Origin: Yuukianura sp. NJ FZ-2021
Taxonomy: Eukaryota
Direction of reading: 5' to 3'
Length of the DNA stretch: 64,000 bases
Assembly: GCA_046563655.1 (NCBI GenBank)
Contig: CM102283.1
Location: forward strand, 5,270,001 to 5,334,000
This document shows, piece after piece, positions 4,435 through 63,944 of this stretch. The position numbers were made by a program, and so were the translations under genes. The notes beneath the pieces are model-generated. The model saw nothing but the letters and a program-made list of their open reading frames with translations. It ran no database searches and was not told the origin of the DNA. Positions within the stretch are counted from its first letter, which is position 1, and each line of letters begins with the position of its first letter.

Positions 4435-7400
4435 TTGGACAGTTCCAAAACTTCTGTTGGGCAGAAGAGGCGGGCTAAAGCAGGATGACGTTGACTATCT
4501 TCCAGCAGAGGATGAGGCCACCGACATAACGTACAAACTTAACCAGAATTGGTCCAAAGAATTGAAACAAAAGAGGCCAAGTTTGAGAAGGGCTCTGTTG
4601 GCGACATTCGGTTGGAAGCTATATACCACCGTGTTGATGGTTCTCTTTGATCAATGCTTTCTCCGGTAACATCTTTTACGAAAACTTTCACCAGAAGTGT
4701 AGAATTAATGAAAGAGATGTGATTTTTTCAGAGTCTGCACGCCCGTGCTCATAGGGTACTTGATTTTCCAGGCGGAGGGGGTACCCACATTTCTACCCGG
4801 AATCGCTCCAAGCATTCTCTTCATTGTCTCTATTTTCTTAAGTACGCTCATTCAACACTTTGCCTGGTTTCGTCTCGGTCATCTCGGTATGAAGGTCAGG
4901 GTTGGCGTCACGGCACTAGTTTATCAAAAGGCAAGCAATTTTCTACTTATTGGTATCCAAAGTTAATCATACAGTTTTAAACTTTGTAATTTTTGTCGTA
5001 GGTCTTGACGTTGAGCCAAGATTCTGTTGGTAACACAGGCGTTGGTCAACTTACGAACATCATTTCCAATGATGTGAACCGTTTCGATCAGATGCAGGAT
5101 ATTCCATACGTTGTGGCAGTACCGCTCCAAATTGTTGCCGCTGCTGTCATTTTGTGCCAGTACATTCAGTTTGAAGCATTGTTTGGAATTGGCATACTTC
5201 TCATCTTACTTCCGTTGCAAGGTGGAGCTACTCACAAAAATTGCTAAAAGTTGCCAGAAAAAAGAAGCCACATAATGGAACTGCACACGCAATTTTAAAA
5301 AAATTGTTTTTCCTTAGCTTGCCTTGGTAGAGGAATTGGAAGTTGGCGAGCTGCAGTAGCAACAAAGACGGATCGCCGTATTCGACTTCTTTCTGAAGTA
5401 ATCGAGGGAATCACGCTGGTAAAAATAAGCACTTGGGAGTCCATATTTTCCAGTCTGGTGAAAGAAGCAAGAACGTAAAATACAATTCCAAATTCACGCA
5501 AATTAAATTTTAGGAAGTAAGCGGCTGGTGTTCAAAATTTCATGTCAAATTTGGAATTGAATTGTGTCAGGAATGAACTGAAATGCATCGACAGGAAGAA
5601 TTGGTTAATGGGAATCAACTACAGCGTGTTCAACGTAGCTGCTAAGCTTTGCTTACTTTGCACTTTTCTAGGCTTGGATCTTACAGACTACAATATATCG
5701 GCAGCTACTGTAAGCTAAACTCCACAACTTGCTATTTCTATCATTTTGAAAATTTGCATCAATTCTATATTTGCAGGTATTTGTAACGCTGTCAATGTAC
5801 AATCTTGTGACCCCGTCAGCCTCTATTTTTTTGCCGCAAGGAATGGGCGGCTTGACGGAAATTCTTGTATCTATTTCCAGAATACAGGTAAAGGCGTAAT
5901 TAATTCGAAATTTGGATATTTGCGTTGAAATTTAAGTTTTGTTTCAGGAAGTTTTACTTCTCGAAGACAGGGAACCGAGCTCAGAAATACGCCGTGAGGA
6001 ACACGTTCCTGTTTCAGTACACGTTGAACATTTGAGTGCGAAATGGGGTTCGGAGGGTCCATTAGTTCTGGAGGACATTTCATTTCATGTTGAAGACAGA
6101 CAGTTTGTTGGGATTGTTGGTTCCGTTGGATGTGGAAAGGTACGTCATGTTAAAAATCAATTTTCTGGTTAGGATTTTCAACTACAGTAGAAACTCTCGT
6201 TACGCAACACTCCCTTATGCACTGCTGTGAAGAACAGATTTGGGGCTACCGTACGGGTGCAAATTGTCTGATATATCGAGGTATCTGAGATATCGGAAAA
6301 CGTTTTCTTACAACTGAAATCCCTCCCAAAATTGAAGTGTTACAGCATCAGGCCATCAAGTGAGACGCGGCTGAACGTTGCACATGGAGAGGTTCTACTG
6401 TAACAACGCTAATAACAAGCATTAACTAAACAATTTATTTCTTACGATTATGCTTGTACAGTAGCATACAGAACTCAAAGTGTAGGAACAAAAAATACTG
6501 CGAACCGTACTTTACATATCGTACTTAGATTCAATTTTCTCATGAAATTCACTCAAAACCTAATCAGCGAATTCATTTTGGTTCTTCTATAGACTTCCCT
6601 ACTGGAAGGAATTTTAGGTGAGCTGAAGAGGGAAGGCGGGCATGTAAAAGTAGTTGGAAAAATTGCTTACGCCACACAGGATGCGTGTATTTTCGAAGGC
6701 ACGATACGAGAAAACATTCTTTTTGGAATGCCCTACAACGAGATTTGGTACAACCAAGTGGTTGAGGCTGTGGCACTGGACAAAGACTTCCAAGGATTCC
6801 CGCTCGAAGATTTGTCGCTCATTGGTGACGGTGGAACAAGCCTCAGTGGTGGCCAGAAGGCACGCATCAGTTTGGCCAGGTAGCACTTTCCAAACACACA
6901 ACCAAAGTGGAATTTTTCGTTTAATGCTTCTTGTTACATTAACTTGTTGAAACGTACACATCATGTGAAAGTACAAACTCGGCATTACACTTTGAGTGGT
7001 TTACAGAGCTGTTTACTCAAAAGCGGACGTGTATTTATTGGATGATCCCTTGAGTGCCGTGGACTTGAAGGTCGGGCGTCATCTAATGGACCATTGCATT
7101 CGAAGTTTGTTGAAATCAAAATGTGTTCTCTTGGTAACACACCAGACCCGTCACTTGAAGGAAGCCGACTTTATCATTTCCATGAAAAATGGCAGAATTG
7201 AACATCAAGGGAAATACAGTGACATTTTTCAAAGCGGTAATGGAAACTTGCAATATACTTTTAACGCTCTGTGAAATGGAGCATTTCATAATACTTATTA
7301 CAAGTTATTCATCTTTTACAGAAGTTCAAGAGACTGAAACTGAATTGGGGATGCTAACAATAGACGAATTAACAGAACAGAAGGTTGAGCATCCAGTTAC

Positions 7401-63800: not shown

Positions 63801-63944
63801 GGAAATCCAGTCAAATGGACAAATGTAACTAAACAAGCAGTCAAGTTACATCATTGTGGTTGGAAAGATGCTGTGAAGTTTACAACTGAGTACTCCTTGC
63901 TTGCGGCCACTGTTCGGTTTGAATTCAATAATGAGTTTGAGTAA
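51866..63944 (+). CDS. PRMT7-like protein arginine methyltransferase (two tandem modules), divergent; 7 exons identified
   Basis: SAYWDMLHDHDR|NAKY, motif I ALDIGTGCGVLAMMA, VYACE, KANLLITELFASTIFDE (double-E loop), WWTLELD and RYHW (THW-loop position). A second module carries WNDQ, VIGDPFF and NGLAIWIDW. Exons ~51866-51973, 52052-52201, 56599-56826, 61546-61781, 61981-62653, 63149-63442 and 63555-63944. An upstream exon is not excluded. Confidence 0.85.
52240..52637. mobile_element. hAT-type MITE
   Basis: TIR cagtgttggtgga / tccaccaacactg, perfect 8-bp TSD attttgac, and subterminal gtggatatccac palindromes. Confidence 0.88.
53392..53881. mobile_element. Long-TIR CAAGG-ended MITE inserted in the first HINE unit
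   Basis: ~100-bp TIRs (caaggcaactaaac...ggtggggcggattgtt and its reverse complement) with perfect 8-bp TSD attaaatt. Confidence 0.88.
54318..54476. mobile_element. PIF/Harbinger (Tourist-like) MITE
   Basis: ~50-bp TIRs cgcccgatacggacttaccgtactgccctcgtgca... / ...tgcacgagggcagtacggtaagtccgtatcggacg, flanked by TAA on both sides. Confidence 0.78.
58153..60907 (-). mobile_element. 5'-truncated, frameshifted non-LTR retrotransposon (LINE; RTE/RTEX-like, clade uncertain)
   Basis: RT motifs KATGPD, PIHKKG, NYRPISL, QAGFRK, AFD, GVLQGESASP, LLYADD and YKYLGV. C-terminal CSFC...H...C. 3' aataaa plus (attg)n tail. 13-bp TSD attaattaattat at 58140-58152 and 60908-60920. Confidence 0.9.
58271..58865 (-). 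mobile_element. HINE (same family as 901-1939) inserted in the LINE 3' UTR
   Basis: Minus strand has 5' hairpin aagcagcgaagctactt, a short GTCY tract, a core colinear with 987-1235, a G/C-run central region, 3' cttcgctactt and stem-loop cggtt-tac-aaccg. Confidence 0.82.

Follow-up and report, generated by a model that had tools for sequence, protein, structure and literature searches.

Do the eleven enzyme and transporter genes that lie within about 60 kb of the genome of Yuukianura sp. NJ FZ-2021 belong to one pathway, or are they neighbors that were brought together one by one? The question is raised by a stretch of 64,000 nucleotides (contig CM102283.1, positions 5,270,001 to 5,334,000 of the forward strand), which is called the window here. 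An earlier note on this DNA had proposed a candidate secondary-metabolite gene cluster, assembled from horizontally acquired and native enzymes. The reading that we prefer, at about even confidence, is that the locus is a real, intact and unusually dense neighborhood of xenobiotic or specialised metabolism, which was built piecemeal and not transferred as a block, and in which one pathway is not proven.

Gene identities were assigned by matches to Pfam families and to sequences in PDB. A family match was obtained for 24 of the 50 pieces of open reading frames (ORFs) that were scanned in the window; 16 of these pieces, ORFs outside the gene models, yielded the RVT_1 retroelement and one P450 exon, and otherwise nothing. 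No Rfam family was found in the window. Its G+C content was 0.34-0.45, and the coding pieces were split by short GT-AG introns; canonical GT-AG junctions could be drawn for every multi-exon gene that was tried. The eleven genes encode an ABCC4-like exporter, a Methyltransf_11 enzyme, an O-methyltransferase (OMT), a cytochrome P450, two Baeyer-Villiger monooxygenases (BVMO1 and BVMO2), a branched-chain aminotransferase (BCAT), a glutamine-synthetase-like (GS-like) ligase, a catalase-like protein, a DUF1479/Gig2-like protein and a PRMT7-like protein (Table 1), with at least three adjacent non-homologous metabolic genes among them. All eleven look intact, and at least four of them appear bacterial or fungal in type. 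Every gene class that the earlier note had listed was present, roughly where it had been placed. The note had also held that almost no housekeeping genes were interspersed; its inventory was right except that an RRM gene, a QVR/Ly6 gene and an RVT_1 retroelement, which it had not mentioned, are interspersed among the metabolic genes.

We begin with the genes of foreign affinity. The OMT protein matched Methyltransf_2 at 123.8 bits (cut-off 22.3) and Dimerisation at 34.7 bits (cut-off 25.6). When 17 sequences were aligned, D175, G178, G179 and G181 were invariant and H248 was kept; W250 of its relatives was not kept in the window protein. The corresponding histidine of Methyltransf_2 OMTs has a catalytic role. 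With both domains, the DxGGGxG motif that binds S-adenosylmethionine (SAM) and the catalytic histidine, the protein is predicted to be a small-molecule OMT of the Methyltransf_2 type. In an index of 5.8 billion proteins it had only 48 relatives; none exceeded 37% identity, all were bacterial or metagenomic, and no animal relative was among them. The earlier note had called this OMT type mainly microbial. The named relatives were bacterial (Blastocatellia, Streptomyces, Geitlerinema and Acidobacteriaceae). With one genome per prokaryote species, the closest full-length matches came from soil Acidobacteriota at 34-37% identity. Its best solved relatives in PDB are bacterial aromatic OMTs of natural-product pathways, with 6c5b (7e-51) as the top match and CalO6, MmcR, AlpH and a phenazine methyltransferase after it.

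The surroundings of the OMT homologues in prokaryotes were compared as well. In 5 of 30 prokaryote loci, all from Acidobacteriota, an Amidohydro_2 gene lay within about 3 kb after the OMT homologue (L045, L046, L048, L050 and L073; about 9.0-12.8 kb in each), and in one of them, L048, two genes for RraA-like aldolases lay upstream as well. The window itself showed no Amidohydro_2 gene. The Amidohydro_2 family includes hydroxybenzoate decarboxylases, and both Amidohydro_2 and RraA-like aldolase families occur in hydroxybenzoate catabolism. By analogy, these neighbors give hints that the substrates of the OMT may be of hydroxybenzoate type.

The GS-like ligase has affinities of another kind. It matched Gln-synt_C at 205 bits, and it scored under the cut-off of every NCBIfam equivalog (GGputSyn 197/650, GlnA 140/429, type III 134/470). 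Because only the Gln-synt_C cut-off was reached, and none of the equivalog cut-offs, the protein is described as a GS-fold ligase, which is predicted to act on an amine. In PDB, bacterial GSI enzymes matched to 1e-29 versus 1e-5 for animal GSII. An exhaustive representative search returned as closest relatives P0289 at 68% identity, another protein at 47%, and a protein of the chytrid Globomyces at 44%; an oomycete protein and a second chytrid protein followed Globomyces among the ten matches for which names were sought. A quick tree placed the window protein in one clade (SH-aLRT 99) with the 68% and 47% relatives and Globomyces.

Both BVMO proteins were classified by Pfam as FMO-like/Pyr_redox proteins. 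In PDB, both were matched best by BVMOs; for BVMO1 the top match was 6jdk at 2e-149, followed by PAMO, CHMO and steroid monooxygenase. Type I BVMOs are defined by two GxGxxG motifs, by GGxWxxxxYPGxxxD, and by the fingerprint FxGxxxHxxxW(P/D). Both window proteins have GAGF(A/S)G in exon 1, and GTGxSG and GGxW....YPGARVD, and are predicted on these motifs to be type I BVMO-like. The fingerprint was incomplete in both: W is followed by Q in BVMO1, and the W and P positions are taken by L and T in BVMO2. WP was present at the end of the fingerprint in 13 of 13 aligned relatives. Both proteins keep the His of the fingerprint, the Lys-Arg-Pro segment and the two Rossmann motifs. BVMO1, and especially BVMO2, departs from the classical fingerprint.

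BVMO1 and BVMO2 are 56% identical, and an intron is located at the identical codon in both genes, directly after the first GxGxxG. The shared intron position supports their paralogy independently. The relatives of BVMO1 at 47-52% identity came from Sciaridae, Folsomia and others without a taxon name. In the tree, both window proteins fell in a clade of 32 rows (SH-aLRT 99) together with three rows of Folsomia candida and four of Sciaridae (genera Bradysia and Pseudolycoriella), the rest being unnamed, and the named Agaricales and bacterial rows fell outside; the tree program warned that both rows from the window are long branches and join each other. The three named Folsomia BVMOs were on contigs of three different lengths and hence on different contigs, which indicated that the family is dispersed there. 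When metagenomes were scanned with BVMO1, none of the 44 loci was a close arthropod-type full-length relative: full-length matches were 33-45% identical, and 50-57% was reached in short fragments only. Our literature searches for BVMOs with HGT (horizontal gene transfer) in Collembola or arthropods found no report on arthropod BVMOs.

The OMT and GS-like genes are intronless and have relatives of microbial type only, a pattern that would also be produced if the microbial-type genes were assembly contamination or if the contig were chimeric. We regard this explanation as very improbable. The two genes are flanked by intron-bearing animal-type genes on one contig, the BVMO genes contain GT-AG introns, and the codon composition of the foreign genes gave no compositional sign of transfer: G+C at third codon positions (GC3) was 0.42-0.51 in the acquired genes, against 0.38-0.49 in their neighbors, and the overall G+C of non-coding DNA was 0.36. 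In addition, four DNA runs of one organism, which are possibly the source runs, held 0.35-0.79 of the sampled words of positions 14001-24000, a stretch that spans the OMT, P450 and BVMO1 genes; five DNA runs were found in all, and one metatranscriptome with a share of 0.06, to which no weight is given. The foreign genes thus look ameliorated and host-like, and the host-like GC3 together with the spliceosomal intron at the same codon of both BVMOs indicates that the acquired genes are resident and not contamination.

Three acquisitions with different donors are well supported by these sequence affinities. In the reading that we prefer, at least three separate acquisitions would have taken place among animal-type genes, namely a bacterial-type OMT, a GS-like ligase of microbial-eukaryote type, and a type I BVMO that would have been duplicated locally after its acquisition. 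Animal-type neighbors would be the ABCC4-like exporter, the CYP2-clan P450, the Methyltransf_11 enzyme, BCAT and the PRMT7-like protein. The mixture of horizontally acquired and animal-type genes that had been claimed for this locus was borne out by the affinities of the OMT, GS-like and BVMO proteins.

Among the animal-type genes, the ABCC exporter has three exons that matched ABC_tran; its match to ABC_membrane, at 26.3 bits, was slightly below the cut-off of 28. Human ABCC4 was the top PDB match (6e-37) of the exon at 9906-10208, which encodes the second nucleotide-binding domain. The start of this gene had been placed at 4435; the N-terminal translation and a located ATG put it probably nearer to 4263. 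The P450 domain was found on three exons, with CYP17, 2R1, 1A, 2B and 2D as top PDB matches, and the translations contained an N-terminal anchor and a PPG-like exon. In the Methyltransf_11 gene, the family matched at 1.7e-05 on the exon at 11921-12211; the remaining exons had no Pfam match, and canonical splice junctions restored the SAM motif EIGVGCG. Its 5' exon with the start codon was not found in the translations of the window. The gene may be METTL7-like, as the earlier note had read it. An ORF at 13418-13654 on the forward strand, between this gene and the divergently oriented OMT gene, encodes a Met followed by a transmembrane-like stretch and had no Pfam match; it may be an overlooked exon or mere noise.

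The earlier note had further claimed that the native-type members BCAT, catalase and PRMT7 each show active-site drift, as would follow recruitment. This claim was only partly sustained. For BCAT no drift was seen: Aminotran_4 was found on the exon at 26436-26624, and the exon at 26898-27134, the sole exon that was aligned by residue, matched human BCATm at 1e-15 with the pyridoxal phosphate (PLP) lysine kept and is clearly of the animal BCAT type, the other exons being seen in translations and splice junctions. The gene is thus a predicted fold type IV BCAT, by its kinship to BCATm and its PLP lysine. For the PRMT7-like protein, whose top PDB match was mouse PRMT7 (4c4a), the sign was weak: the double-E loop still has its two glutamates and motif I is kept, and two other acidic positions of the loop differed from mouse PRMT7. 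Matches to PRMT_C and PrmA were weak and below their cut-offs, and the second module rests on the weak PRMT_C match.

Drift was found in the catalase-like protein, which matched Catalase at 308 and 111 bits, and also Catalase-rel. In monofunctional haem catalases the distal His, the catalytic Asn and the proximal Tyr have catalytic or haem-related roles. The distal His and the proximal Tyr were kept in the window protein and the catalytic Asn was lost, so that the full set of a monofunctional haem catalase appears to be absent. Where ordinary catalases have Asn-Asn, other residues stand in the window protein and likewise in P0169, P0170 and P0171 (three of the four clade relatives were aligned). 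Exon 1 was 59% identical to P0169 and about 45% identical to ordinary catalases. Together with the metagenomic proteins P0169, P0170, P0171 and P0173, the protein formed a long-branch clade of five rows that left out all the named catalases of the sample, among them those of animals, algae and oomycetes. The catalase matches carried no signal of lineage; the arthropod-like character of the genome was read from the QVR domain, the short GT-AG introns and the BVMO clade. For this reason, the native origin that had been assigned to the gene was not secured, although its drift was confirmed. The catalase-like and GS-like proteins each had one close relative, neither of them with a taxon name. The catalase-like protein would represent a distinct subfamily, probably fast-evolving, and is predicted to be secreted from its signal-like N-terminus.

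The DUF1479 protein matched Gig2-like on three exons at 84-108 bits. Its PDB matches were GIG2 (6akz), YbiU (2csg/2dbi) and 4rgk, so that the solved relatives are bacterial and fungal. The H-x-D...H triad of this fold binds metal; H-V-D and the distal His of the window protein aligned with GIG2 and 4rgk, and with domain and triad present the protein is a probable member of the DUF1479/Gig2-like family. An Atlas search with a DUF1479 exon fragment returned clusters with FAT domains, which are meaningless for a fragment and were discarded. The end of the DUF1479 coding region, 64 nt with the stop codon (49560-49623), recurs with 88% identity at 49801-49864, 241 nt downstream; this copy is a remnant of partial duplication.

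Table 1. Genes and other features located in the window.
Feature	Position	Strand	Remarks
ABCC4 (MRP4)-like ABC exporter	4263..10635	+	many short exons; first exon and ATG at 4263 putative
Methyltransf_11 SAM methyltransferase	11733..12789	-	four exons seen; Pfam and splice junctions
Aromatic OMT, bacterial type, 338 aa	14705..15721	+	intronless; HGT candidate
Cytochrome P450, CYP2-clan-like	17195..20557	-	at least 5 exons; membrane anchor
BVMO1, type I BVMO-like	22387..24329	-	exon 1 24329-24257, intron 311 nt, exon 2 23945-22387
BCAT, fold type IV	26161..28648	-	at least 6 exons; ATG at 28648 putative
RRM RNA-binding protein gene, first exon	30577..30867	-	RRM_1 at 3.6e-15; non-metabolic
Quiver/Ly6-uPAR-like small cysteine-rich protein gene	31667..32092	-	QVR at 7.1e-09; non-metabolic
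GS-like ligase, microbial-eukaryote type, 430 aa	35705..36997	+	intronless; HGT candidate
BVMO2, paralogue of BVMO1	40931..43360	+	exon 1 40931-40979, intron 819 nt, exon 2 41799-43360
Divergent catalase-like haem protein	45159..46906	+	two exons, intron 46234-46340; hydrophobic signal-like N-terminus
DUF1479/Gig2-like Fe(II)/2-oxoglutarate-fold protein	47920..49618	+	six exons, five introns
PRMT7-like two-module arginine methyltransferase	51866..63944	+	long repeat-filled introns; continues past window end
Reverse-transcriptase remnant of retroelement, in PRMT7 intron	59408..60786	-	RVT_1 at 4.5e-21 and 3.9e-08

Of the non-metabolic features, the RRM protein (30577-30792) has a hydrophobic signal-like stretch ahead of its RNP motifs, which is unusual in a small RNA-binding protein. 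The large PRMT7 intron contains several families of direct repeats at 53070-56290, spaced by about 0.9-1.0 kb and 74-84% identical. A short dispersed repeat was found in both orientations at 1050-1236, near the left end of the window; at 20000-20111, toward the 5' end of the P450 gene, where it separates the first exons from the exon at 19234-19695; and at 58556-58742, in a PRMT7 intron. G+C-rich tandem arrays at 1393-1687 and 58396-58502 adjoin two of the copies.

We then estimated how often such a block would arise by chance. A rough binomial was calculated for blocks of 12 loci with values from the springtail Folsomia, for which 809 foreign genes have been counted among about 28,700 genes (the latter number derived), or 2.8% (PMC5490193). 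Three independent foreign loci among 12 gave P = 4e-3, or about 10 blocks per genome. The co-location may therefore reflect chance or a region permissive to integration, with neighbors that are functionally unrelated; we consider this a possible but rather doubtful explanation. It would be in line with the different donors, with the lack of a common motif, with the dispersed repeats and the retroelement in and around the block, and with the choice of the finding from a very large scan, in which extremes are expected. When it is also counted how many of the non-foreign genes encode enzymes, however, the expectation falls well below one per genome, and all the genes are intact and retain most of their catalytic motifs, from which it follows that they are at least individually under selection. 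The product of the foreign-locus and enzyme-share probabilities corresponded to less than one block per genome, which is not negligible given the pick from a very large scan. The density of the block is borderline, at the edge of chance in a genome rich in HGT.

The opposite explanation is a true biosynthetic gene cluster in an animal genome, whose enzymes would act sequentially on a simple aromatic or amino-acid scaffold. The steps might be hydroxylation, oxidation of Baeyer-Villiger or Dakin type, methylation at both O and S, and either an amination or the gamma-glutamyl processing of an amine, and the product might be a defensive compound that is exported by the ABCC4-like pump. We judge this explanation unlikely. 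It would account for the eleven non-homologous genes in 60 kb, all intact, and for a block that, on some assumptions, is less common than simple chance would make it; the kinship of the OMT to bacterial natural-product enzymes and the Amidohydro_2 genes beside its nearest Acidobacteriota homologues (5 of 30 loci) also fit. As the earlier note had stated, however, no polyketide synthase (PKS), nonribosomal peptide synthetase (NRPS) or terpene synthase was found among the Pfam-matched pieces of the window, so that a scaffold-forming enzyme is missing there. The components also differ in phyletic range, BVMO being common to Folsomia and Sciaridae and the OMT having no animal relative among its 48 matches. 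BCAT and the PRMT7-like protein keep ordinary catalytic residues and may be plain housekeeping genes. Finally, the 600-nt upstream regions of the 11 genes had no common 7-, 8- or 9-mer beyond shuffles: the best ones occurred in 8, 6 and 4 of the 11 regions, and shuffle maxima averaged 7.4, 5.2 and 3.6, in an exploratory comparison of low power with gene starts partly putative and transcription starts not known.

Springtail chemistry bears on the same question. The earlier note had mentioned that some springtails use O-/S-methylated and aminated aromatics as deterrents, and such compounds are indeed in print. Ceratophysella denticulata contains O-, S- and N-substituted benzenes, namely 4-methoxy-5-(methylthio)benzodioxolane, trimethoxybenzoxathiolanes and an amino derivative, and other springtails contain syringic acid, 3-hydroxy-4,5-dimethoxybenzoic acid, 2,4-dimethoxyaniline, 2-aminophenol and dimethoxypyridopyrazines, O-methylated gallate derivatives being among the springtail products (PMC11376146). 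No biosynthetic pathway for these compounds is given in the available portion of that report. Such chemistry would fit a cluster, but the link of the window to any known compound is conjecture. The most specific version of the cluster explanation is a plant-style cluster from at least three transfers (bacterial OMT, chytrid-type gamma-glutamyl ligase and BVMO pair) and recruited native paralogues, which would make hetero-substituted (O-methyl, S-methyl, amino) aromatic defence compounds of springtails; we hold it to be quite improbable.

Several points nevertheless weigh against the piecemeal reading without a proven pathway. If DUF1479 is counted as foreign, four foreign events fall in 12 loci (P = 2.6e-4, about 0.6 blocks per genome). 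Of the eight remaining genes, five encode enzymes or transporters, with P = 0.01-0.06 at an assumed background of 20-30%. The binomial takes the rate of foreign genes from another species and assumes independence, and the low power of the upstream comparison counts here as well. The two BVMO genes lie within 17 kb of each other despite 44% divergence, and this proximity could reflect a constraint on linkage. The springtail aromatics would match an enzyme palette such as this one, with an aromatic OMT, oxygenases and possibly a thiol methyltransferase, next to an amine-handling ligase and an exporter; this is a lead only, by analogy.

Under the piecemeal reading, the products of these genes would act as separate or loosely coupled steps in the handling of small molecules. 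The P450, DUF1479 and the BVMOs would account for oxidation. O-methylation, possibly S-methylation, and gamma-glutamylation of amines would serve for conjugation or capping, and export would proceed through the ABCC4-like pump. Likely substrates would be dietary fungal compounds or compounds of the soil. We infer these substrates, the role in detoxification and the absence of a common product.

Detoxification sets of arthropods comprise phase I-II-III components, that is, P450s, conjugating enzymes and ABCC pumps, and their loci are usually tandem arrays of a single family. Unlike such loci, the window has each family once except for the BVMO pair, and several of its conjugating enzymes are foreign. 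The palette of oxidation, conjugation and export is shared with these sets, and ABC transporters and P450s come from expanded, stress-responsive families; in Folsomia they are among the largest expanded families (PMC5490193). The window resembles microbial and plant gene clusters, in the sense of antiSMASH and MIBiG, in that a non-homologous P450, flavin monooxygenase, OMT, 2-oxoglutarate-type oxygenase and aminotransferase stand beside an exporter. It differs from them in that the scaffold enzyme is absent from the window, and in that housekeeping-like and non-metabolic genes are interspersed.

Foreign biosynthetic clusters are already known in springtails: Folsomia candida has an acquired beta-lactam cluster (ACVS/IPNS/cmcI/cmcJ) and 36 antiSMASH clusters (PMC5490193). 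As in these, foreign metabolic genes of the window stand side by side among host genes in a soil microarthropod, with a retrotransposon nearby. The Folsomia clusters, however, have a core PKS, NRPS or ACVS, and the beta-lactam one is a recognisable microbial pathway (PMC5490193), whereas the window has no core enzyme, its foreign genes point to different donors, and its pathway is not recognisable. There is also a precedent for a foreign enzyme family that is patchily distributed among arthropods: canonical terpene synthases are common to Sciaridae, Acariformes and Collembola, with intraphylum transfer (PMC11665903). The BVMO family of the window is similarly patchy, being found with Folsomia and sciarid gnats and apart from the fungal and bacterial enzymes; it is another enzyme family, and no mite sequence was named among the BVMO matches. 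In bdelloid rotifers, acquired biosynthetic genes are reported, with expression evidence, to be deployed against a fungal pathogen (PMC11258130). Those animals likewise make use of foreign biosynthetic genes.

If the genes of this locus work together, they would form a rare animal cluster for a specialised metabolite, built de novo from several transfers, and the defence chemistry of springtail-like animals, so far unexplained, could be tied to a concrete locus. Even without a joint function, the locus brings together an arthropod clade of BVMOs with Folsomia and fungus gnats, a bacterial aromatic OMT, and a chytrid-type GS-like ligase in an animal. The BVMO, OMT and GS-like genes are domesticated and can be regarded as candidate adaptations to chemicals of fungi or of the soil.

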